Sequence record: MT782071.1
Length of the DNA stretch: 64,000 nucleotides
Reading direction: 5' to 3' (one strand)
Source: Escherichia phage JN02
Positions 1 to 46,577 of the stretch are shown here, piece by piece; position 1 is the first letter of the stretch; the number at the start of each line of letters is the position of its first letter. The position numbers and the translations under genes were made by a program. The notes beneath the pieces were generated by a model, which worked only from the letters and a program-made list of their open reading frames with translations, did not search any database and was not told the DNA's origin.

Positions 1-1183
1 ATAAGGTTGAACCGGGTGAGAACGACCTTGTGGAATCACCTTGTTTTGCTCTTTAAGGCTATTAAAAATAATAGCATCCCATGTTTTAATTGGGCTAAAC
101 ACAGATTGAATCTGTATCTTAGCATAATAACCCATGTCCAAGCTCAAGTTAATGAACTGACGTTTACCATCAATTTGTAATACACGATACACGTCGATAA
201 TGTTATAAGAAATATATCGTTGGTGATTGCTTTCACGAAGCTTAGAAATAGGGCCGTCATATTTCAGTTTACCGACGTTCAATTCAAATTCTGAAATGTA
301 ATCCAGAGAATACGACGGTTGATTAGTAAAAGAGAATTTTTTGTAAAGGTCAATGTAATCAAGAACAGAGATACCGAACAATGTAATGATTTCACGAGAA
401 CCATACATGTTTTCGATAACTTTAACACGAGTTTTACGATGTGGTGATAAACGTTTCGCAGTAGATTCGCCAAAAATATTCTTGATTCGGTTATACACAT
501 ATGGAATATCAAATGACTCAACGTTCCATCCGGTTAAAATGACAGGAGTTTTCTGTTGCCAGAAGTTGAGATATTCCATCAACAATTCTTTTTCGTTATC
601 GAACGGCATATAAATGATTTTATCGATAATTTCGGATGGAACTTCATCACCACCTTGTTCTTGAAGCTTAGCCGCAATTTCGATAGACCATTCTTCCACA
701 TTACCGTATGGAGAATTCAAAAGGTCAAATACGTAGAACCTGTCGTCAATTGAGTCATAATGGGTGATAGCATCAATTGGATGTTTTGCTTGTGACGGCT
801 CAGGGAACCCATCCGGAGATGTTACTTCGATGTCGAAGTTAGCCACACGAATTTTTGTATGGTCGTATTTGATTTCATAGTTATAAGTGTCAGACAAATA
901 CGCCAATTTGAAATCGTCCATGCCAAGTGCTTCAAGTCCGATATCTTCCATGCGTTTAATCCATTGGGAGGCATCACGCATATTGGCGAACAACTTACGA
1001 GTACACGGCTTACCGTAGATATCGAAATATTTCGTAGCCTGACTTTCTGGACAATGAGCAAACAGTGATGGTTTATATTCTACTTCACGAGTACGTTCAC
1101 GGCCATTAGAATCGATGTAACGTTCAAAAATTGAATCACCAATCTGTTCAACCGTTAAGTAAAATTCTTTCATTTAATTTCCT
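1..1183 (-). CDS. 43: DNA polymerase gp43, N-terminal ~394 aa (partial, continues past window start)
   Basis: Manual minus-strand translation from ATG ~1183 reads MKEFYLTVEQIGDSIFERYIDSNGRERTREVEY...KTWDAIIFNSLK with no stop to the window edge; closely matches the N-terminus of T4 gp43 as I recall it. Absent from ORF track because it has no in-window stop. Confidence 0.85.
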
Positions 1184-3228: not shown

Positions 3229-3915
3229 TTAGAAGTCGTGAGTAGAATCGGCTTCCATCGCAATAACATAACTTACTTGAGAGCTTTCAAACTTGGCTGC
3301 AACTTTATCACCAGCTCCCCACAACATTACTTTATAGTTACCTGGCTGGATTTTCATATTAGCCATATTGATTACGAAGTTAAAATTGTTAGAACCATCA
3401 TAATCGGTAAGAGTCAAAGAATACTTAGGACGAGTTAATCCAGAATCTTCAACTTTATTGTAGCCATTGATAACAATTTTACCATCTTTATTTGTAATAG
3501 CAATTGTATCAATTTGAAGACCACGTGAAACTCGAAGCAATTGTTGAAGGTCTTCAGCTTTAATTTCAGTAATCACGGAAGCCACTGGGAATTGAATTGG
3601 CTTATTAGGAAAAACAATGGTGCTCTTGTCAGCGGCAGGCCAATAAACTGTGGAACGTGTATCTGCAATTTTAATATTGCCATCGGTGTGCATTGAAATT
3701 TCAGCATCATCAGACACTAGACTCAAAATGCTTAAGAAGCTATTCAAATCATAAAGTGCTACGTCAAAATCAATTTCATCAGAGATATTTGCTTCCGCAT
3801 AAGTGGTGCCATTAACTGCACGAGTCATAATAAATTTACCTTGACTCAGCAGAATGCCGGAGTTAATAGAGGCAAAGTTTTTCAGAATAGCGATAGTATC
3901 TTTAGACAGTTTCAT
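3229..3915 (-). CDS. 45: Sliding clamp gp45
   Basis: Track ORF 3229..3930; from M6 reads MKLSKDTIAILKNFASINSGI..., matching the T4 gp45 N-terminus; 228 aa. Confidence 0.92.
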   Translation of the reverse strand: MKLSKDTIAILKNFASINSGILLSQGKFIMTRAVNGTTYAEANISDEIDFDVALYDLNSFLSILSLVSDDAEISMHTDGNIKIADTRSTVYWPAADKSTIVFPNKPIQFPVASVITEIKAEDLQQLLRVSRGLQIDTIAITNKDGKIVINGYNKVEDSGLTRPKYSLTLTDYDGSNNFNFVINMANMKIQPGNYKVMLWGAGDKVAAKFESSQVSYVIAMEADSTHDF

Positions 3916-4629: not shown

Positions 4630-6318
4630 TTATGAAACAGTCATTACCGTAAATCGTCCAACTTTGCTCATCTGAAGATGTTGTCCATAACGTTGAGGGT
4701 CATGGTCTCGATGAGAGATAATAAACACATTAGTATTTTGTAAACTTCCAAGAATGGTATCTATAGCCTTAACAGCCTCAGAATCAACAGCGCCATCAAA
4801 AACCTCATCAAGAATCAGAGTGTTGATTTTAACGCCAGAGACCTTTTCAGCAATATCTCGCCATGTAAACAACAATGCGATATCGATACGCGCTTTTTCG
4901 CCTTGACTAAATGAAGCATAACTAAAATCTTCACGACCACGTGATTTTATAGATTCATTGAATTCTTCGTCAATAGAAAACACGTAATCGGCTTCCATGA
5001 TTTTAAGATAATGGTTAATCTGCTTGTTGAACAGAGGCACATATTTTTTAATGATAGCACCTTTAATACCAGAATCTTTTAACATATCTGTGATAATACC
5101 ACGATGGTATTTTTCAAGAACGATATCCGATTTTGTTTTAATGATTTTATCAAGTTCTTTTTGAAGCAAAGCTATCTCATCGGCATGGTCGATAAATTCC
5201 GCCGAGGCTTGTTCTATTGCAGCTTTAACTTTCTTAGCTTTATCAATAGTGGCAATCATTGCTTGTTTCTTGGTACGAATATCAGATGCAAGGTCCTGTT
5301 TAGTCTTAACATTAGCTCTATATTCGTCCACTAGGACACTCAGATTATCTCTGTGACATGTAAGTTGCTCGAATGAGTGATTACATTCGTGAAGCTTATT
5401 GGTAATCTTAGAGACAATAGGATCACCCTGGTGCAACTGTGATGCACAAGTAGGACATGTACCACCATCATGATACATCTTAATAACTTTGTTATATGAG
5501 TCAATTTTAGATTTAATCAAGAATGCTTCTTGTCCGATCTTGTTGAACGCCTCAGTAGGGTCTTCATCAAGAACGATATTAAGTAGTCGCTCATTAGCTT
5601 CTTCGATTTCTGCTTTTAATGAACGAGCTTCTTTGGCTAGGTCGTCATACATATTCTGTAGACGCGCTACATTATCACCAGATAATTTCTTTTGACGTTC
5701 GATATTCTCGTTATAAATCTTAATTTGTTGGATAACACCATCTTTCTTGGCATCGAGAACTTGTCCCTGGGAATTAAGTTCTCTAACTTGAGACTTATTG
5801 ATTTTATCCATTTCAGCGAGTGTGCCGACTTCTAAAAGGTCTTCGACAAGTTTTCTACGAGCAGGGGTGCTAAGAGCCATGAAAGGGGTATACCCTGCCG
5901 TCCCAAGCACAACGATTTGTTTAAAAGACGCGTATGACATTCCGATGCTACGTTCAAATTCTTCTTGGAAGTCACGACTGCTGGCAGATTCATCAAGACG
6001 AACACCGTCAACGGAGATTTCGAAAATATTGGGCTTTTGGCCACGTTTAATGAAGTATTTTTTACCATCGAATTCCATCCAAAGCTCAACTAAGAGCTCT
6101 TTCTTGTTCGTGCTATTAATGATTTGCCCTTTCTTAACATCACGAAATGGTTTACCGAAAAGTCCGAAAGTAATGGCTTCTAACATCGTAGATTTACCAC
6201 CACCATTTTTACCAGTGATTAATGTCTTTTGGACTTTATCTAATTGGATGTCAATAGGATTCCCACCTACCGACATGATGTTTTGATAACGAACACGATT
6301 TAATTTAAATGATTTCAT
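4630..6318 (-). CDS. 46: Recombination endonuclease subunit gp46 (Rad50/SbcC-like ATPase)
   Basis: 562 aa; N-terminal Walker A GKNGGGKSTMLEAITFGLFG; long coiled-coil middle; C-terminal ABC signature and Walker B region (TLILDEVFDGA); T4 synteny. Confidence 0.92.
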   Translation of the reverse strand: MKSFKLNRVRYQNIMSVGGNPIDIQLDKVQKTLITGKNGGGKSTMLEAITFGLFGKPFRDVKKGQIINSTNKKELLVELWMEFDGKKYFIKRGQKPNIFEISVDGVRLDESASSRDFQEEFERSIGMSYASFKQIVVLGTAGYTPFMALSTPARRKLVEDLLEVGTLAEMDKINKSQVRELNSQGQVLDAKKDGVIQQIKIYNENIERQKKLSGDNVARLQNMYDDLAKEARSLKAEIEEANERLLNIVLDEDPTEAFNKIGQEAFLIKSKIDSYNKVIKMYHDGGTCPTCASQLHQGDPIVSKITNKLHECNHSFEQLTCHRDNLSVLVDEYRANVKTKQDLASDIRTKKQAMIATIDKAKKVKAAIEQASAEFIDHADEIALLQKELDKIIKTKSDIVLEKYHRGIITDMLKDSGIKGAIIKKYVPLFNKQINHYLKIMEADYVFSIDEEFNESIKSRGREDFSYASFSQGEKARIDIALLFTWRDIAEKVSGVKINTLILDEVFDGAVDSEAVKAIDTILGSLQNTNVFIISHRDHDPQRYGQHLQMSKVGRFTVMTVS

Positions 6319-6569
6319 ATGTATTCTCTTCGAATGAAGTCCTCTACATATTTTAACATGTCATCTCTATCAGCAAAATATTCATCTAGTTCTGCATACA
6401 TAACAACACCTGGTGCGTACTCACAGGTAACATACATTGTTCCAAAGAAACGAGGAGTTGATTCCTCGTAATTCTCAGTCCATTCAACGATACCAATATA
6501 ACCGTCGCCAATACTAAATTCATGACGATGGATTTCATAGTCAGTCTTCGTCATTATACGCATCCTCAA
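6315..6569 (-). CDS. Hypothetical protein (46.1 position)
   Basis: 84-aa track ORF, 4-nt overlap with gene 46 start. Confidence 0.6.
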   Translation of the reverse strand: MRMRIMTKTDYEIHRHEFSIGDGYIGIVEWTENYEESTPRFFGTMYVTCEYAPGVVMYAELDEYFADRDDMLKYVEDFIRREYI

Positions 6570-6798
6570 TACACGCTTCAGCCATTTTAAGAATAGAGCC
6601 AGGAGTATCGTTGTCCATTATATTAAAGCTAAATTCAATGGCCCAGTCGGTGCAGACATGAACTGCTTTAACTTCATTGCCTTCAACGCGTAATGGCTCA
6701 ATCCAATACTTGATAGTGTTCTCGAATCCATCATCATCTTTAACGTCCATTTCAACTTCAAGCCTGAGTCCAGCATTGTTAAATTCATCTAAAGTCAT
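6541..6798 (-). CDS. Hypothetical protein (46.2 position)
   Basis: 85-aa track ORF between gene 47 and the 46.1-position ORF. Confidence 0.55.
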   Translation of the reverse strand: MTLDEFNNAGLRLEVEMDVKDDDGFENTIKYWIEPLRVEGNEVKAVHVCTDWAIEFSFNIMDNDTPGSILKMAEACIEDAYNDED

Positions 6799-7814
6799 TG
6801 TGTTGCCTCAATATAAAGTTCGTTGGAATATTTGACCAGCGCTTCTCTGTCTTCGTCTGAGATATCTGGAATCGCATCAATATATTCTTTAATGATATCT
6901 TGAAGTGATTTAATCTCGATTTCCTGGTCGTCATCAGATTCAACACTGTTATCAACTTTAGAAACCATACGAAGAGAGTGAACTACTTTTTCAAGTTCAG
7001 ATTCAAACTTAGTCAACTCTGAATCAATTTCTGATACTATAACACGTACGGCTAGATTAGTATAATCAGAATAATTGATTTTGCCTTTAAACGGATAAGT
7101 GATTCGTCGATGCCATGTTGTTTCATTAGGAATAAATTCCATACGTTCAACATCAGTGTCAAATACCCAGAATCCTCGAGGGTCGTTCTCATCACCTGCA
7201 GTAAGGGTCCATGGTGTCCCAATATATTTGACGTTAGCAGCTTCAGAGATTGTGTGGAAGTGGCCGGACCAGACTTGTTTATAGGTCTTTAAGAAATCAG
7301 GTTCAAGCCCATGAGACTTCATTCCTTTATAGAAATAAAAGCCATTCAGTTCCCAGTGCCCAACACAATACGCGGCGGAAGAAGTCTTGATGTGCTCTAA
7401 GATTTCACCTGTATTTTCTTCACACATCCATGGAACGATATCAATCAGACATCCGTCAAAATCTACAGTAGTTGGATGCTCGTAAATAGTAAAGTTTTCA
7501 AATTGAGTTAACAATTCAGAAACAGTGTTAGGTGTTATTGTATTCTTAAACGCCATGTCATGGTTTCCTATCGTGACATGAACGTGAATGCCTGCTTTAG
7601 AAATCATATCAACGATTTCACGATTGAATTCCATTGTACGATGTGTTATTGCTTTACGGACGTCAAACCAATCACCGTACTGAATCCAAGTTTTAATCCC
7701 ATGTTTCTTAGAGTATTCAATTGCTTGACGAATACCATCACGTTGAATATCTTGAACCCATGGGTCGTCTTGTTTGACTCCGATGTGGAAGTCGCCTAAG
7801 TGCAAAATTTTCAT
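6795..7814 (-). CDS. 47: Recombination endonuclease subunit gp47 (Mre11/SbcD-like)
   Basis: 339 aa, same as T4 gp47; N-terminus MKILHLGDFHIG is a calcineurin-like phosphoesterase motif; SD GAGGAAAT upstream. Confidence 0.92.
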   Translation of the reverse strand: MKILHLGDFHIGVKQDDPWVQDIQRDGIRQAIEYSKKHGIKTWIQYGDWFDVRKAITHRTMEFNREIVDMISKAGIHVHVTIGNHDMAFKNTITPNTVSELLTQFENFTIYEHPTTVDFDGCLIDIVPWMCEENTGEILEHIKTSSAAYCVGHWELNGFYFYKGMKSHGLEPDFLKTYKQVWSGHFHTISEAANVKYIGTPWTLTAGDENDPRGFWVFDTDVERMEFIPNETTWHRRITYPFKGKINYSDYTNLAVRVIVSEIDSELTKFESELEKVVHSLRMVSKVDNSVESDDDQEIEIKSLQDIIKEYIDAIPDISDEDREALVKYSNELYIEATQ

Positions 7815-7860
7815 ATTATTTCCTCATTAGTTAATTCATTCTATCATCCGTTTATAAAGC

Positions 7861-7888
7861 AAAAAAAAAAGGAACTCCGAAGAGTTCC
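7861..7888 (-). terminator. Rho-independent terminator (minus strand)
   Basis: Perfect hairpin GGAACTC-ttcg-GAGTTCC followed on the minus strand by T10; between the 57-aa ORF and gene 47. Confidence 0.7.
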
Positions 7889-8061
7889 TATCCACATAGT
7901 ACGCCGTACAGAGGCTCATTTGAACTTTTAAATCGAATGGGCTTGTATGTAATAGTTCCTTCGGCTTTAGCTTTATCATAAGACTCTTTAAAACGTCTCA
8001 TTCTTTCTGCTTTGCCTTTACGGATTTTATCGAAATTTTCAGAAGTCGGGATGTTCGTCAT
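7888..8061 (-). CDS. Small hypothetical protein (57 aa, below ORF-track threshold)
   Basis: Manual translation MTNIPTSENFDKIRKGKAERMRRFKESYDKAKAEGTITYKPIRFKSSNEPLYGVLCG; GAGG about 8 nt upstream of the ATG; stop overlaps the terminator hairpin. Confidence 0.4.
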   Translation of the reverse strand: MTNIPTSENFDKIRKGKAERMRRFKESYDKAKAEGTITYKPIRFKSSNEPLYGVLCG

Positions 8062-8100
8062 GCATAAGCACCTCTCAGAAAATACCTAAATCGATTTCTC

Positions 8101-8322
8101 TCATCGTTTCCACCATTTCTTAACTTGAAATGAATCAACCCACACGAGTTGTTTTGGGTCTGCCTTTACAATAGGCGGACAAATTTCTGTAATAGAACCG
8201 TCATGATATTCCTTTTCAGAAATTTTAACACAAAGAGGACCTCCCAATTTAAGGGTGAACCCTGCGTTCAGATTAAGACGTTTAAACTTTGTTTGAACTA
8301 GCGCCATTAATGATGTCCTCAA
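8101..8322 (-). CDS. Hypothetical protein
   Basis: 73-aa track ORF; true start may be the internal Met at ~8307. Confidence 0.5.
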   Translation of the reverse strand: MRTSLMALVQTKFKRLNLNAGFTLKLGGPLCVKISEKEYHDGSITEICPPIVKADPKQLVWVDSFQVKKWWKR

Positions 8323-8605
8323 TAGCCTGACGAGTAGTAATCCACTGGATTTTAATTAACTTGTCATTATATGGTTGTCGTAGAATATCCCGAGATTTCT
8401 TAATAGCATATTCGTAAGCTTCGAAGTTATTTTGAATTGCTGCTTCTTGAGCATGAGCATAAAGACGGTTTAGTTCAAAACGATTCTTTTTAAGAATCTT
8501 TTCGGATTTTTTACGTGCTTCAGCTTCATTTTTCTTTTGGATTTCTTGTAGCATTTTAGCTACTGCATCTTCTGCTTCTTTATTTTCAATAATCTCGGTA
8601 GTCAT
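8282..8605 (-). CDS. Hypothetical protein
   Basis: 107-aa track ORF, charged and helical; occupies the slot where T4 carries alpha-glucosyltransferase. Confidence 0.6.
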   Translation of the reverse strand: MTTEIIENKEAEDAVAKMLQEIQKKNEAEARKKSEKILKKNRFELNRLYAHAQEAAIQNNFEAYEYAIKKSRDILRQPYNDKLIKIQWITTRQAIEDIINGASSNKV

Positions 8606-8606
8606 A

Positions 8607-8816
8607 TTATCTCATTAAATTAAAATAAAAACGTCCATCCTCTTCAATACAGAACTCGTACTCAACTGGAGTCCCGTTTATCGAAAATGACACGTCATGT
8701 GGGTTCAAAGGGTCGATGTCAAAATTAATTTTAAATTCACGACCCAACAGTTTTACCAAATAAGGGATTGCTTCGTCAAAAGGTTCTTCTAAGTAGTTAG
8801 AGATGTCAATTGTCAT
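8607..8816 (-). CDS. Hypothetical protein
   Basis: Track ORF 8607..8900 overlaps gene 55; internal ATG ([11 protein letters not shown]...) just after the gene 55 stop gives a 69-aa product. Confidence 0.5.
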
Positions 8817-9363
8817 CCTCATATAAAAAATCCAAACTAGGTGAATCGCTAACAACTTCCTTCTTTTCAGCCCCAGGAGCTTTATAAGCGGATTCTTCAT
8901 AATGCGTCATTTTATCGTAGATGTCTTGAATAAACGTTTCATCTACCAACGCTACCATATCATCGTCATGACTGTCGTAGACATTATGAACGAAGTAACT
9001 ATATTTCTTTGCAACTTCCTTACGTTCTTTTTTGATACGTTGGACAAAAGCATTAAAACAAGCTCGAGTTATGTATGCATGTGGGTTATTGTACTTAGTT
9101 TCGTCGAAATTATGAAGTCCCTTAATAGAGGCTTCAATCCCATCTGCAATCATCTCCTGCTTCCAAGACTGGGTATATCCTGAAAAGTTGAAACGTTTGG
9201 ACAGGCCTTCGGCGATAAGCATAATTGCTAAACCGATGGTATCATTCTGACGAATAATTTTGTTTGGGTCTTTATTATTTAAGAGCTCCTTTTTCCACTC
9301 GATTATAGCGGCGAGAAGCTCTTTATTATTCACATAGTTATTTTTAGGTTTTTGTTCAGTCAT
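8806..9363 (-). CDS. 55: Late-transcription sigma factor gp55
   Basis: 185 aa; [35 protein letters not shown]...[12 protein letters not shown], near-identical to T4 gp55 as recalled. Confidence 0.93.
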
Positions 9364-9435: not shown

Positions 9436-9705
9436 CTATCGGAGCAAACAATAAGCCTGAAACACTTTTTCCATTAAACGTTTGAACTCATGGATATCGA
9501 TATAAAGCTCAGTAAGTCCGGCATTATAAAGAAAATCTAAAAAGTTCTCATGTGTTTCGTTATAGTCGCCTTCGTTTAATTGAGATACATGAGTTTCCCA
9601 AAAACCAACACCTTTAACGAATGGAAAATACGTGACTTTCATGTATTCGTCAACATAAAATTCGCCCAGCTTTTCTTCAGTTATACTGATTCGAGTTAAT
9701 TTCAT
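9436..9705 (-). CDS. Hypothetical protein
   Basis: 89-aa track ORF. Confidence 0.6.
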   Translation of the reverse strand: MKLTRISITEEKLGEFYVDEYMKVTYFPFVKGVGFWETHVSQLNEGDYNETHENFLDFLYNAGLTELYIDIHEFKRLMEKVFQAYCLLR

Positions 9706-12311: not shown

Positions 12312-12782
12312 TTAATCATGTTTCCACACCCCATCGGTATTTGACCAAAGTCGCTGATTATCTGATCCTCGCCACAGTTTTTTGGTCGGAAGATTTTTCT
12401 CATACTTCCCATCAATAATAACATCAACATATTTAAGCATTTCTAGTTGTTTAATATCTTCAAATTTATATCCTGTCCACAACCAAATGCTTTTATTGGG
12501 ATAAAGATTTTTTACTGTTTGAACAATGCAATGAACAACATCTCGGTTATCAGGATAGAGCGGGTCTCCTCCAGTTATAGTTAATCCTTCTATATAATCA
12601 TTATTCAAACATTCAATTAATTGTTCCAGTGTTTCACCAGTGAATGGAACGCCATTTCTAGCGTTCCATGTTGATTTATTATAACACCCTTCGCATTTAT
12701 GCAAACAACCTGTAACGAAAAGAACGACCCTGCATCCAGGGCCATTCACAAAATCGCAAGGATAAAATCTATCATAATTCAT
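12312..12782 (-). CDS. nrdG: Anaerobic ribonucleotide reductase activating protein NrdG (radical SAM)
   Basis: 156 aa; radical-SAM Cys cluster CRVVLFVTGCLHKCEGCYN; 4-nt overlap with nrdD. Confidence 0.9.
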   Translation of the reverse strand: MNYDRFYPCDFVNGPGCRVVLFVTGCLHKCEGCYNKSTWNARNGVPFTGETLEQLIECLNNDYIEGLTITGGDPLYPDNRDVVHCIVQTVKNLYPNKSIWLWTGYKFEDIKQLEMLKYVDVIIDGKYEKNLPTKKLWRGSDNQRLWSNTDGVWKHD

Positions 12783-14596
12783 TGGTGTTTAACCCTATGC
12801 ATGATTTCTTTATTTTTGCCGAGATTAAATCCGCGTTCGTTCGGATTTCCCAAATAACCACAAGTTCTTCTTATTGTGTTCATCTTTTTAGGATCAGTTT
12901 CTCCACAAATAGAACAAACAAATCCATTTTCGGTAGGAGTCATTTCATGGGTACTTCCACACGTAAAACATTTATCTACTGGCATATTAACACCAAAATA
13001 ATCTAAATGTTGTGCAGCATAATCCCATACAGCCTCAAGACCTTTTAAGTTATTTTTCATATCAGGAAGTTCAACATAAGAAATGTGTCCACCTGTCGCA
13101 ATGAAATGATATGGGGCTTCGCGAGAAATCTTTTCAAACGGAGTAATATTTTCTTCTACTGAAACATGGAAACTATTAGTGTACCAGCCTTTATCAGTAA
13201 CATCCTTTACACTTCCATATTTTTCGGTATCAAGTTTACAGAAGCGATAACAAAGGTTTTCAGCGGGAGTAGAATACAAGCTAAAAGCAAAACCAGTTCT
13301 TTCAGTCCACTGCTTAAGACGAGCATTCATTTTAGTCAAAATTTCCTGTCCAATATCACGACCGACAAGAATATTCAATTCGTGAATTCCAATGTATCCC
13401 AAAGACACTGAACTTCTGCCGTTTTTAAATAACTCAATTATATCGTCATCAGGTTTAAGACGAACCCCGAATGCACCTTCTTGGTAAAGAATAGGAGCAA
13501 CAGTTGCTTTAACACCCTTTAAAGAACTAATTCTACACATCAAGGCTTCAAAACACAAATCCATTCGTTCATTGAACAATTCGGCAAATTTCTGTTCATT
13601 GAATTGTGTTCCAATATAAGAATCTAACGCAATACGAGGAAGATTCAGTGTTACAACGCCAAGATTATTACGTCCATCAAGAATTTCATTACCAGTCGAA
13701 TCTTTCCATACGCTCAAGAAACTACGGCAACCCATTGGAGAAACAGGAATAGATGAACCGGTGATAACTTTATTATTCTTAACTGAAATAATATCAGGAT
13801 ACATCCTTTTGCTTGCACACTCTAGAGCAAGCTGCTTAATATCGTAGTTCGGGTCGTCTTTATAAAGATTGACACCCTCTTCAACGAACATAACAAGTTT
13901 AGGGAAAATAGGAGTTATTCCATCACGACCAAGGCCTTTAATTCGGTTTTTAAGAATTGCCTTCTGAATAATTCGTTCAGTCCAGTCAGTTCCAGTACCA
14001 AATGTAATTGTTACAAAAGGCGTTTGTCCGTTTGAACTAAAGAGAGTATTTACTTCATATTCATAAGCTTGGAATGCGTCATAGACATCTTTTTCTGTTT
14101 TAGATTGGGCATAATTCAACGCATCAGCGATTTGCCATTTTTCTGCATCCTCAATATGTTTTGCATAGGTGCGTTTAACATAAGGAGAAAGTACTTTATC
14201 TACATTAGCAAAAGTCGTTCCGCCGTACTGATGTGAAGCAACCTGCGCAGTAATTTGTGCCATAATTGCAGTAGCAACGCCAATCGATTTAGGCGTTTCA
14301 ATTTGAGCATTACCTAGCTTAAATCCTTTTTCAAGCATTCCTTTTAAATCTACTAAACAACAATTAGTAAATGGAAGAGCAGGGGAATAATCAATATCGT
14401 GGAAATGGATAATTCCGCTTTCATGTGCTTTCATAATAAAAGACGGGACCATATTTTTGGCAATGTGCTTAGACACAATACCAGCCATAAGGTCCCGTTG
14501 AGTTGGAAAAACACGAGAATCTTTATTAGCATTCTCGTTCAAAAGATCTTTATTAGTTTTATGAATTAATCCTTCAATTTCTTTTTCAATTTTCAT
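12779..14596 (-). CDS. nrdD: Anaerobic ribonucleoside-triphosphate reductase NrdD
   Basis: 605 aa uninterrupted; C-terminal zinc-ribbon cysteines (CFTCGSTHEMTPTENGFVCSICGETD) and glycyl-radical loop RRTCGYLG; same length as spliced T4 NrdD. Confidence 0.93.
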   Translation of the reverse strand: MKIEKEIEGLIHKTNKDLLNENANKDSRVFPTQRDLMAGIVSKHIAKNMVPSFIMKAHESGIIHFHDIDYSPALPFTNCCLVDLKGMLEKGFKLGNAQIETPKSIGVATAIMAQITAQVASHQYGGTTFANVDKVLSPYVKRTYAKHIEDAEKWQIADALNYAQSKTEKDVYDAFQAYEYEVNTLFSSNGQTPFVTITFGTGTDWTERIIQKAILKNRIKGLGRDGITPIFPKLVMFVEEGVNLYKDDPNYDIKQLALECASKRMYPDIISVKNNKVITGSSIPVSPMGCRSFLSVWKDSTGNEILDGRNNLGVVTLNLPRIALDSYIGTQFNEQKFAELFNERMDLCFEALMCRISSLKGVKATVAPILYQEGAFGVRLKPDDDIIELFKNGRSSVSLGYIGIHELNILVGRDIGQEILTKMNARLKQWTERTGFAFSLYSTPAENLCYRFCKLDTEKYGSVKDVTDKGWYTNSFHVSVEENITPFEKISREAPYHFIATGGHISYVELPDMKNNLKGLEAVWDYAAQHLDYFGVNMPVDKCFTCGSTHEMTPTENGFVCSICGETDPKKMNTIRRTCGYLGNPNERGFNLGKNKEIMHRVKHQ

Positions 14597-22806: not shown

Positions 22807-23796
22807 TTATTTATAGTAAGAATTATGATTTTCGAGATAGACTTGTTCAAGGAAGTCATCCCAGAAACTCATATCTACTTTTTGTTGCATACCGTTCTTG
22901 GCAGCTTGTTCTGACGCATGTTCAACTTGGTCAACGATATCTTCTAGGAATTCTTGTACAGTTTTAAACGTATGTTTACCAAGCTTAACATCAAGAATAA
23001 ATGGAGCATCCTGAAGTGGGTAAACCAGGTCGCCTGTTTTGTAAATTTCTAATAATTGAAGTCCACCACGACATGCATGACTCAATGCTTTCCAGTCAAT
23101 ACCTTCATTAGCTTCTGCCTTACGAGCACGTTCGCCATAGTTCTCTTCTAGTTTAACAAGGATGGCATTGAACTCTTTATTGGTTAACGTGTCTTGGAAT
23201 TTACGGTCCAACAGATTATAGAATGTTTGCTTACCTGTTTTCTCGTTTTCGGTTTCAACCCATGAAGCAAATTCACCTACAGGCAGAACATTCTTCATAT
23301 GTGATAAACGAATTACTGCACCATTATCAAAGTATTGTCCCCATTCATTAGAACGTTTAAGGGCTTGACGAAGAATAGCCAGTCGAGAACCCTTGACACC
23401 ATATTTAGAAGCTTGCTTACGGACATACCCTAAATAAGATTTCATGTTAGTGGTATAGAAGCGAGACCTGTTATCTTGAATATACTTCCATACATCAGGC
23501 AAATCAGATTTAACTACTAGACTTTGTGGAGTGTGAAGCATATCTAATGCGACTGTTTCACCATCTGCAGCTAGTTTAAAGAAATATTTGAGACTATACA
23601 ACTCATGGTCAACGTCGTCTTTTGTGTTCTTAGAAGACGTGTTATTCGTGTTCTTGCTCATATGTTCTTTAACGTTACCGGTCAAGATATCACGAGCATG
23701 AGGGACGTAAATTTCTTTAAAATCGACGTCCGATTCAGGAGTAGACGTTCCATAAAGGTGACTACCAAAGTAGCCTTTCATAATTGTTTTCATCAT
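22807..23796 (-). CDS. Nucleotidyltransferase-fold protein (329 aa)
   Basis: N-terminal GSHLYGTSTPESDVDF fits the Pol-beta-type NTase signature G[GS]x9-13Dh[DE]h; C-terminal helical domain; subfamily not assignable by eye. Confidence 0.6.
   Translation of the reverse strand: MMKTIMKGYFGSHLYGTSTPESDVDFKEIYVPHARDILTGNVKEHMSKNTNNTSSKNTKDDVDHELYSLKYFFKLAADGETVALDMLHTPQSLVVKSDLPDVWKYIQDNRSRFYTTNMKSYLGYVRKQASKYGVKGSRLAILRQALKRSNEWGQYFDNGAVIRLSHMKNVLPVGEFASWVETENEKTGKQTFYNLLDRKFQDTLTNKEFNAILVKLEENYGERARKAEANEGIDWKALSHACRGGLQLLEIYKTGDLVYPLQDAPFILDVKLGKHTFKTVQEFLEDIVDQVEHASEQAAKNGMQQKVDMSFWDDFLEQVYLENHNSYYK
22808..22815 (-). promoter_or_regulatory. Late promoter (TATAAATA) upstream of the 88-aa secreted-protein gene
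   Basis: Minus strand TATAAATA about 33 nt upstream of the ATG at 22775, overlapping the stop of the upstream gene. Confidence 0.5.
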
Positions 23797-24266
23797 TTAG
23801 CCTTATATTCAAGAGTAGGACAGATTTTTTCTTTACGAGCTTTAAGGTATTCACCTATTAATGATTTCTTACGTTCAATAGGCTCAAGTCCATTTTTAAT
23901 TCGTTCTTGGTTTTGTGCAATGAGCTCAATTTCTTTATAATATTTTCTGTCGTTATATTTGTCTAACAACCAAGACGGGCCAATTACCAACCCGGTAGCA
24001 ATAAAAGCCATGACTGCTACCATTAAAATGCCTACGCCAATTGAGGCCGGAACTAATGTCCATAGACTGCTAAAAACAAAGAATCTAGTTAAAAATTCCT
24101 GGCCAATGATTACGACTGCTGCTAAAATAGCAAATCCAATAATTGAAACAGCCAATACTGGGATTAACGTTTTCCAAAAATAAGCACACAACGTTTTCGG
24201 ACGATTCCATGTACTATTGAACATGGCATAAATTTTAAAGTGCCAAGAGTTTTCATTGATAATCAT
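23793..24266 (-). CDS. Membrane protein (157 aa)
   Basis: Two or three hydrophobic TM-like segments. Confidence 0.6.
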   Translation of the reverse strand: MIINENSWHFKIYAMFNSTWNRPKTLCAYFWKTLIPVLAVSIIGFAILAAVVIIGQEFLTRFFVFSSLWTLVPASIGVGILMVAVMAFIATGLVIGPSWLLDKYNDRKYYKEIELIAQNQERIKNGLEPIERKKSLIGEYLKARKEKICPTLEYKAK

Positions 24267-34620: not shown

Positions 34621-35108
34621 CTCAAATTCCTGCATTCGGTAATAAAACGTTCAACTTCATTATTCTTGGCTTTTATCTTGTCTTTACGTTCCTGTAAACT
34701 ACTTTTAACAAGATTAATAATGATGCCTATAGTACCTCCACCAATAATACCACCAACAACACTTATGATACTAGATGCTAATAAGATAGCAATAATATCA
34801 ACAAAACCGAAAGAACTCACCTTAGTACTGAAAAACCATACCGACGGTACAAATATAATCCATCCTGTTATCCATTGGCACTTATTGAAAAACTTTTCAA
34901 GCTCAGCTTGAGTTGTTCGTATTACTTCATCGATAGGTTGATATCCATTAATGTATCTGTTCACGATAATACCTGCTGGCTGGTCGATTTTAAATTCTTG
35001 ACAAATATGTTTCACTAAGTAGGATGGACATCCTGTCCAATCTACTGAATAGTATGAAATACCTTCATTGCCATCGTCTATATTAGACCAATATGTTTTG
35101 TTAATCAT
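34617..35108 (-). CDS. Membrane protein, FI[KT]ECR C-terminal family
   Basis: 163 aa; TM-like segments (WIIFVPSVWFF; IIAILLASSIISVVGGIIGGGTIGIIINLV); C-terminus NEVERFITECRNLR. Confidence 0.6.
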   Translation of the reverse strand: MINKTYWSNIDDGNEGISYYSVDWTGCPSYLVKHICQEFKIDQPAGIIVNRYINGYQPIDEVIRTTQAELEKFFNKCQWITGWIIFVPSVWFFSTKVSSFGFVDIIAILLASSIISVVGGIIGGGTIGIIINLVKSSLQERKDKIKAKNNEVERFITECRNLR

Positions 35109-43360: not shown

Positions 43361-43876
43361 TTAAAGCAAATCAATCATTTTAACAGTCGGCAAAACAATT
43401 TCTTCTTCAATATAAGCGAATTCAACACGTTCAACTACACGCAAGAAATCATAATCATAATATTCAGAAGCATGGCCAAGAATATCAATGAGACCTTCAG
43501 ATATCTTATTACCATTCACAAAGAATAAGTCAAATACGCGTTCTTCATCTTCTTCGGATTTATTACCAAGGTCGACTTCAATATCAAAGACCTTTTTAAT
43601 GAATTCTGGATAAAGCTGGTCTGAGAACAGTCCTTCAACCAAGTATTCATAGATTAAAAGCGAGCAATCGCTGAACAGTGTATTACCACAGTAACGTTCA
43701 GCTTTAGTGCTAGAATGACGACTCTTAAATTTCTTCAAGAGATATTTAAACTGTTGGAGCTCATGCTCTTCTACACCAAATAATGTTTTGGTTTTATAGT
43801 TGTCGCCGTCATTTTCCCAAGTAGTGACATCAATTACGTAGCCCTTAGGAATTGTACTGCCTAAACGAATATTCAT
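43361..43876 (-). CDS. Hypothetical protein (171 aa)
   Basis: Track ORF with ATG start; acidic. Confidence 0.65.
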   Translation of the reverse strand: MNIRLGSTIPKGYVIDVTTWENDGDNYKTKTLFGVEEHELQQFKYLLKKFKSRHSSTKAERYCGNTLFSDCSLLIYEYLVEGLFSDQLYPEFIKKVFDIEVDLGNKSEEDEERVFDLFFVNGNKISEGLIDILGHASEYYDYDFLRVVERVEFAYIEEEIVLPTVKMIDLL

Positions 43877-45842: not shown

Positions 45843-46577
45843 TTACCTTAAGGTTGTTTCAATTTTAGAATAAAGCTCTTCTAAAGAGCCGTCGTTTGTA
45901 ATAACTAAATCGCCTTCTTCAATAGGCAACCCAGCTTCTGTAATATGTTTATCGGTGGATTCCGTACCAGAGCGAACCACATGAATAACTGTAGCACCCA
46001 TCGCTCTAGCGGTTTCCATTTCATGGACTTGGCGTGTATCGGTTACAACATAGTAATCGAAATCACTTCCAATATAATCCATATAATTTAATGCAAAAAG
46101 TTTAACCCAATACATACGGTCAAATAAATTAACGACAACATCCGTACCGAGGGCTTGCATAAGACGGCGGATTGACCATGTGTCGTTGATATTATTTATA
46201 GCTTCACGCAGGGCTTCATATGGTTTAATATCTAGATATGAATACCCACCTTCTAATGATGATAATACTTTAACATTATTAATTGGTAAATATTGGCTTT
46301 GTAAATAAATTAGCGCTTCTTCCATTAATTCAATAACATCCAACTTATTGATATTTAATGGTGTTTCACGGTCGTATCCAACACCTTCAAAGTATTCATA
46401 TTTCAACTCAGTGAATACATCAGGGTTTTCGGCATGTCTACGTCCCCAGGCTATTGCTAGAGCGTCTTTAATCGGATATGCCAATTGGTATTTTACGGAT
46501 TTAAAGTTTGAATTGATGTAATCAGCAGTGGTGTCTTTACCACTACGTTTGATGCCGCTTAAAAAGATTAGCTCCAT
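45843..46577 (-). CDS. 1: Deoxynucleoside monophosphate kinase gp1
   Basis: 244 aa; MELIFLSGIKRSGKDTTADYI P-loop N-terminus as in T4 gp1. Confidence 0.92.
   Translation of the reverse strand: MELIFLSGIKRSGKDTTADYINSNFKSVKYQLAYPIKDALAIAWGRRHAENPDVFTELKYEYFEGVGYDRETPLNINKLDVIELMEEALIYLQSQYLPINNVKVLSSLEGGYSYLDIKPYEALREAINNINDTWSIRRLMQALGTDVVVNLFDRMYWVKLFALNYMDYIGSDFDYYVVTDTRQVHEMETARAMGATVIHVVRSGTESTDKHITEAGLPIEEGDLVITNDGSLEELYSKIETTLR

Follow-up and report, generated by a model that had tools for sequence, protein, structure and literature searches.

In phage T4 the alpha-glucosyltransferase gene a-gt lies between genes 47 and 55, and the question raised by the corresponding locus of Escherichia phage JN02 is what the absence of this gene says about how the phage modifies its DNA. 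The sequence we analyzed, referred to here as the window, is a 64,000-nt (64 kb) stretch of JN02 (MT782071.1) in which the minus strand carries all genes of the first ~48 kb, the 47-55 interval included (Table 1). The initial annotation had given the T4 gene order at this junction and concluded that a-gt was missing from JN02, and both statements stood: the T4 record gives the order 47, 47.1, a-gt, mobB, a-gt.2, a-gt.3, a-gt.4, a-gt.5, 55, and the largest ORF in the JN02 interval has 107 residues. In tblastn searches of the window with T4 a-gt, b-gt, mobB, and 47.1 we identified no homologs (the best a-gt match had an E-value of 0.57 over 16 residues), and there was no counterpart to the ~400-residue a-gt in the 47-55 interval or in the rest of the window. 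The four small ORFs and the strong terminator that the annotation had described in the interval were likewise borne out, save for minor differences in start codons. For the a-gt.3 ortholog the ATG start (68 residues), which is that of the APCEc01 and RB69 annotations, aligned with the T4 start; an upstream TTG would give 73 residues (8101-8322). For the a-gt.5 ortholog the 71-residue form has an N-terminus (MRMTIDIS...) that aligned with that of T4 (MRLTINLS...), and its ORF shares 17 nt with the 3' end of gene 55; other possible starts give 69 residues (two codons inward, as annotated in RB69) or 97 residues (from the first ATG).

Table 1. Features of the gene 47 to gene 55 region and of genes 43 and 1 in the JN02 window (window coordinates).
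Feature	Position	Strand	Evidence or remark
Gene 43, 5' part (DNA polymerase residues 1-391)	1-1173	-	Cut by window edge
Gene 46	4630-6318	-	82% identity to T4 gp46 (BLASTP)
46.1 and 46.2	6315-6798	-	
Gene 47, SbcD/Mre11-like recombination nuclease subunit	6795-7814	-	Pfam Metallophos
Spacer, 73 bp	7815-7887	-	Between gene 47 and a-gt.2 ortholog
Gene 47 ribosome-binding site, GAGGA	7825-7821	-	In spacer, upstream of gene 47 ATG
MotA-box middle-promoter match	TGCTTTA 7861-7855, 11-nt spacer, TAGAAT 7843-7838	-	Consensus match
Intrinsic terminator, 8-bp stem, UUCG loop, T10 run	7861-7889	-	Directly after a-gt.2 stop codon
a-gt.2 ortholog, 57 aa, DUF5486	7888-8061	-	BLASTP, Pfam, phrog_2140
a-gt.3 ortholog, 68 aa from ATG	8101-8307	-	BLASTP, phrog_1648
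a-gt.4 ortholog, 107 aa, DUF2654	8282-8605	-	BLASTP, Pfam
a-gt.5 ortholog, 71 aa, DUF5491	8607-8822	-	BLASTP, Pfam
Gene 55, late sigma factor	8806-9363	-	91% identity to T4 gp55 (BLASTP)
Gene 1, dNMP kinase	45843-46577	-	PDB 1DEK, E 1e-92; 63% identity to T4 gp1

BLASTP searches against the T4 proteins matched the four small ORFs to a-gt.2 (76% identity, E-value 6e-28), a-gt.3 (69%, 3e-33), a-gt.4 (60%, 9e-39), and a-gt.5 (48%, 4e-18). Pfam scores exceeded the family cutoffs for DUF5486 (97 bits, cutoff 27), DUF2654 (96 bits, cutoff 25), and DUF5491 (49 bits, cutoff 27); the a-gt.3 ortholog matched no Pfam family and was matched to its PHROG family with an E-value of 1e-33. All four had PHROG matches, in each case to a family of unknown function. 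By Pfam threshold or BLASTP orthology, and by their conserved position beside gene 55, these ORFs are the conserved genes a-gt.2 to a-gt.5, whose names are positional, taken from T4, and imply no role in glucosylation. The earlier idea that they fill the slot of a-gt did not hold, because T4 has the same ORFs in the same place, right alongside a-gt. A single-sequence AF2 model of the a-gt.4 ortholog was all-helical, with four helices (pLDDT 76); a Foldseek search of the PDB with this model gave no match with an E-value below 2.9 and was uninformative on function. The a-gt.4 gene has been listed among ORFs of unknown function that T4 shares with five distant relatives (PMC1524935), and this mention of a-gt.4 was all that a literature search on a-gt.2 to a-gt.5 returned.

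Comparison with other phages located the difference from T4 precisely. T4 and the window have orthologous, collinear copies of the flanking genes and of a-gt.2 to a-gt.5 (gp47, for example, has 76% identity to T4 gp47 by BLASTP), whereas genes 47 and a-gt.2 are separated by 2283 bp in T4 (~2.28 kb, encoding 47.1, a-gt, and the homing endonuclease mobB) and by 73 bp in the window. Dhakavirus JS98 has gene 55 and a-gt.5 to a-gt.2 in the same order as the window, followed by 47.1 and 47; it thus keeps 47.1 and is without a-gt. Kanagawavirus PEi20 has 55, a-gt.5 to a-gt.2, and then 47, without a-gt, like the window. Jiaodavirus Mineola has the same a-gt.5 to a-gt.2 block, but in this phage a-gt lies directly between a-gt.2 and 47, and mobB and 47.1 are absent. 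At this junction a-gt is therefore present in Tequatrovirus and Jiaodavirus and absent from Mosigvirus, Dhakavirus, and Kanagawavirus. The T4 and Mineola proteins have 66% identity for a-gt, 71% for gp47, and 76% for gp55, and a divergence of a-gt near that of gp47 and gp55 would fit long residence at the junction with loss in some lineages; the difference may stem either from a loss in Mosigvirus or from a gain in Tequatrovirus. Homologs to a-gt.2 were found in 815 phage records and homologs to a-gt in 657. Among the 40 of these 657 matches that were listed there were T4-like Escherichia, Shigella, Yersinia, Salmonella, and Citrobacter phages, as well as Klebsiella and Raoultella phages at ~66% identity, and none of these 40 was one of the Mosigvirus records that matched a 3-kb region of the window. 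The a-gt.2 to a-gt.5 block is found in Tevenvirinae with or without a-gt, and since it is kept whatever the modification chemistry, it may be an unexplored module tied to gene 55, with which it is co-transcribed, and not to glucosylation.

The window itself was readily placed. Its 3-kb region had 98.5-99.0% identity to many Mosigvirus genomes (NHEP10, APCEc01, a20, JK36, and others), with 146 records covering at least 80% of the region in one piece and a best match of 99.0%, and a 25-kb stretch had ~97% identity to mar005P1, SSE1, and JS09. The part of gp43 encoded at the window edge (residues 1-391) was 99.7% identical to RB69 gp43 (tblastn, window 1173..1), and the two tRNA genes of the window (Arg-tct and Met-cat) are the same pair as in APCEc01. 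In RB69 (NC_004928) the genes RB69p066-p071 correspond to 47, a-gt.2, a-gt.3, a-gt.4, a-gt.5, and 55, identical in content and order to the window, with identities of 100% for gp47, 95% for a-gt.2, 99% for both a-gt.3 and a-gt.4, 100% for a-gt.5, and 99% for the sigma factor gp55. The RB69 spacer has the same terminator and promoter match, and the region as a whole differs by point changes only; for example, the run of T residues that follows the terminator stem (the first of them paired in the stem) is T10 in the window and T6 in RB69. The same layout of the region was observed in APCEc01, NHEP10, and mar005P1. With this high nucleotide identity and collinearity, the window belongs with Mosigvirus.

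What this lineage has in place of glucosylation has been described. RB69 was found to have no identified homolog to the known glucosyltransferases and to carry arabinose, not glucose, on its DNA, with ORF003c as a candidate GT-B arabinosyltransferase (Thomas et al. 2018, PMC6024577). The chemistry was later revised to mono- and di-arabinosylated 5-hydroxycytosine, the synthesis of 5-hydroxy-dCMP by gp48 was demonstrated, and gp46:47 was proposed to make the first transfer and gp3 the second (Lee et al. 2026, PMC13326640); these two roles are still proposals because the first arabosyl transfer was not reconstituted in vitro in that work. The Mosigvirus NP has the same modifications, and its two putative transferases map to the same pair of positions (Durham Collection paper, PMC13390438). 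As published for RB69 and phage NP, the thymidylate-synthase homolog gp48 of RB69 turns dCMP into 5-hydroxy-dCMP, which is phosphorylated by the gene 1 kinase and incorporated in place of C; one or two arabinose units are then added, a step attributed to the predicted GT-B arabinosyltransferases gp46:47 and gp3, and the sugar donor would be supplied by RB69 gp50-55, predicted to make UDP-arabinose. The arabinosylation genes lie at two loci, one between gene 43 and uvsX, where gp46:47 adjoins gp48, and one near rIIA, where gp3 lies between rIIA.1 and gene 39. Gene 1, whose RB69 ortholog (RB69p159) appears in the published pathway table (PMC13326640), is the only gene of the pathway for the modified cytosine nucleotide that lies in the window.

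The remaining genes were sought in relatives. By tblastn, APCEc01 carries homologs to RB69 gp3, gp45-48, gp50-53, and gp55 at 97-100% identity (gp46 and gp47 as one 299-residue ORF, and one 561-residue ORF within the gp50-53 set); gp45 is a kinase, gp48 a thymidylate-synthase homolog, and RB69 gp55 an arabinose-5-phosphate isomerase. The APCEc01 order is 43, SIS isomerase, NTP-transferase/kinase, ..., thymidylate-synthase homolog, 299-residue glycosyltransferase, kinase, uvsX. In these relatives the main arabinose cluster begins ~40 bp past the 3' end of gene 43, a position ~1.6 kb to the left of window base 1. All ten of the listed contigs whose gp62 is identical to that of the window (96.5-98.6% identity to the window) showed the order 55, a-gt.5 to a-gt.2, 47 ... 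43, arabinose cluster, uvsX. Across the phage collection 153 records matched the window junction at 90% or better, the same number matched Ara-GT1 at 95% or better, and 155 matched gp3 at 95% or better; an Ara-GT1 homolog was also present in the Dhakavirus-type phage Bp7 (66% identity). From these relatives we infer that JN02 itself carries the arabinosylation genes, at loci outside the window, and has arabinosylated DNA. We are thus highly confident that the window is from a Mosigvirus, that its 47-55 interval has the standard layout of the genus, and that a-gt is missing since this lineage uses another cytosine hypermodification. Among the possibilities originally offered (that the phage glucosylates differently, not at all, or with a gt gene elsewhere), it is a different modification, with glycosyltransferase genes elsewhere, that relatives and published work support for the group.

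That JN02 might have lost cytosine glycosylation altogether, having neither a-gt nor an arabinosylation module and so bearing bare hmC, bare 5hoC, or plain C, is compatible with the absence of the modification genes from the window itself. We nonetheless consider such a loss very unlikely: the window stops inside gene 43, just ~1.6 kb short of where the cluster would start, every close relative examined (APCEc01 and the ten contigs) has the full module, and the junction, Ara-GT1, and gp3 occur in matching numbers of records (~153-155). Still harder to sustain is a move of an a-gt or b-gt type enzyme to another part of the genome, with glucosyl-hmC DNA as in T4. The T4 position of b-gt, between 42 and uvsX, does fall outside the window, but the search of the whole genome that had been suggested, which we ran on the complete genome of the 99%-identical relative APCEc01 (168,771 bp) with T4 a-gt, b-gt, mobB, and 47.1, revealed no homolog elsewhere; the best a-gt or b-gt match had an E-value of 0.036 over 69 residues, which we regard as noise. 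Furthermore, the 43-uvsX interval of relatives is taken by the arabinose cluster, and the gene 42 homolog has just 25% identity to T4 gp42 and is reported to make 5-hydroxy-dCMP, not hydroxymethyl-dCMP (PMC13326640), leaving relocation extremely improbable. The lack of T4 a-gt and b-gt homologs that goes with arabosyl-5-hydroxycytosine DNA was accordingly seen in both the window and APCEc01 (all E-values at least 0.036).

The last alternative, that one or more of the small ORFs or another window ORF is a new DNA glycosyltransferase replacing a-gt, can practically be dismissed: the small ORFs are in the right neighborhood and of unknown function, but at 57-107 residues they are far below the ~300-400 residues of GT-B enzymes, their orthologs coexist with a-gt in T4 and Jiaodavirus Mineola and occur equally in the a-gt-less JS98 and PEi20, the predicted a-gt.4 structure is a simple bundle of helices that matched no known fold, and Pfam and NCBIfam searches of the large unannotated ORFs of the window gave no glycosyltransferase family. 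Of the poorly annotated large ORFs, Pfam covered the ten largest on the early strand and NCBIfam covered eight, and most window ORFs of at least 150 residues have T4 orthologs, so a hidden glycosyltransferase in the window was rejected. A Mosigvirus-specific ORF of 318 residues (36439-37395) matched DUF7277 and DUF7275 only and had no sequence match in the PDB. Sequence searches of this kind could overlook a highly diverged window protein with a GT-B fold; even RB69 gp3 is only ~10% identical to a-gt-type enzymes (PMC6024577).

The true position of a-gt, between 47 and a-gt.2, is occupied in the window by a regulatory spacer alone. Its terminator hairpin (7889-7870, minus strand) consists of the stem AGGAACTC, the loop TTCG, and the stem GAGTTCCT, with the T run extending to 7861, and has a folding energy of -12 kcal/mol (z = -3.3), with none of 200 shuffled sequences equally stable. 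The adjoining promoter match follows the consensus for MotA-dependent middle promoters of T4 and RB69, (a/t)3TGCTTtA-N11-13-TAtaAT (PMC1524935), and this agreement suggests that a MotA-type middle promoter for gene 47 lies in the spacer. We rejected the possibility of an a-gt remnant at this site, as the terminator, promoter match, and ribosome-binding site account for all 73 bp and tblastn with 47.1, a-gt, and mobB was negative. A dispersed repeat was rejected as well: a strict scan of the window, which required a 4-nt loop on a perfectly paired stem of 5 bp or more and GCTT[TC]A no further than 45 nt away, gave six sites, of which only that at 7860 (minus strand) had the full module of hairpin, MotA box, and -10 element in early-gene orientation, a single full site and no repeat family.

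T4, like the window, has a UUCG-loop terminator and then the GCTTTATA motif downstream of a-gt.2. Unlike the window, however, T4 has the terminator and MotA-box module twice: the composite of UUCG hairpin, GCTTTATA, and -10 element occurs once after a-gt.2, upstream of mobB, and again after a-gt, upstream of 47.1 and 47, so that the two copies bracket mobB and a-gt, whereas the window and RB69 have one copy each. Two composites in T4 against one in the window and RB69 is what a gain or loss of the mobB/a-gt block between repeated modules would be expected to leave. In T4-like phages, cassettes of a promoter and stem-loop (PeSLs) have been described as boundaries flanking variable genes (PMC2839356, PMC4122927); the promoter part of the composite described here fits the middle (MotA) consensus, not the early one, and both motifs of this comparison are short and functional. 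It is conceivable, though on balance doubtful, that the a-gt/mobB block is an exchangeable cassette, and that modification genes of T-even phages are gained and lost by PeSL-like recombination between regulatory repeats as a lineage switches between glucosyl-hmC and arabosyl-5hoC. Recombination between the regulatory modules, suggested by their arrangement in these genomes, is a lead and not a result.

The missing a-gt of JN02 is thus the ordinary and already described genome organization of RB69-type phages, in which the absence of a-gt and b-gt was noted in 2018 together with an alternative modification that was chemically revised in 2026. In practical terms the window can be assigned to Mosigvirus, and the four ORFs taken as fillers can be labeled as homologs to a-gt.2 to a-gt.5. 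The point made at the outset, that the state of the DNA bears on the arms race between phage and host, has a documented answer for Mosigvirus (PMC6024577, PMC13326640, PMC13390438): BrxU, a type IV enzyme of the GmrSD family, restricts phage NP and cleaves all the modified DNAs tested in vitro (PMC13390438). By analogy with these phages, the DNA of JN02 would be expected to contain arabinosylated 5-hydroxycytosine, and would probably be affected little, if at all, by the classical restriction-modification systems tested on Mosigvirus phages but be cleaved by BrxU.

T4 homing elements, mobB included, are missing from this region of the phage. In T4 the homing endonuclease mobC separates nrdG from nrdD, and nrdD itself holds a group I intron with I-TevII, whereas in the window nrdG and nrdD lie side by side with no homing endonuclease between them and nrdD is a single unbroken ORF of 605 residues. 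We also saw that segB is absent between the only two tRNA genes of the window (Arg-tct and Met-cat); the same two alone are present in RB69 and in APCEc01, compared with eight tRNA genes in T4. One of the ten related Mosigvirus contigs, the metagenomic SRR8797781_103, has an additional 296-residue ORF between rpbA and gene 45, which is in neither the window nor the other nine contigs. This ORF had no match in Pfam and could be a mobile element.

The interval between genes 55 and 55.1 holds an 89-residue ORF of the RB69ORF072c type, of which the Dhakavirus phage JS98 carries a homolog, whereas T4 has no gene at this site. For a 318-residue early-strand ORF we found no counterpart in the syntenic 14–94 kb of T4, no PDB match by sequence and no NCBIfam family; its only domain assignments are DUF7277 and DUF7275. 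Among the window's unassigned ORFs that lack a T4 counterpart, it alone is big enough for a hidden enzyme fold. Four more ORFs (157–228 residues) had no tblastn match in T4 14–94 kb and no significant NCBIfam family, and neither of the two scanned against Pfam had a family there; the four are accessory genes of the hyperplastic regions, missing from the compared T4 region.

Features and their coordinates (window unless another sequence is named)
Feature	Position	Strand	Remarks
Composite module	7826-7889	-	
Terminator T-run	7861-7870	-	
T4 composite modules	T4 (L001) about 5685-5731 and 3586-3624	-	
89-aa ORF	9436-9705	-	DUF7200; phrog_1822
nrdG + nrdD	12312-14596	-	
ORF	23793-24266	-	one of four
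ORF	35108-35794	-	one of four; Pfam scanned
318-aa ORF	36439-37395	-	DUF7277 + DUF7275; phrog_2141
ORF	41758-42384	-	one of four; Pfam scanned
tRNA genes	43125-43281	-	
ORF	43361-43876	-	one of four
296-aa ORF	SRR8797781_103 (L018) 7388-8278	+	

At the gene 47 junction a UUCG-loop terminator, GCTTTATA (a predicted MotA box) and a -10 element together form a composite module. The terminator T-run is a homopolymer of variable length, T10 in the window and T6 at the RB69 (L004) junction, with the first T pairing in the stem; the two junctions are otherwise near-identical. While the window and RB69 each have one copy of the module, T4 has two, one on each side of the mobB and a-gt block, and this difference in copy number suggests that the block may have been gained or lost in a cassette-like manner between regulatory repeats.
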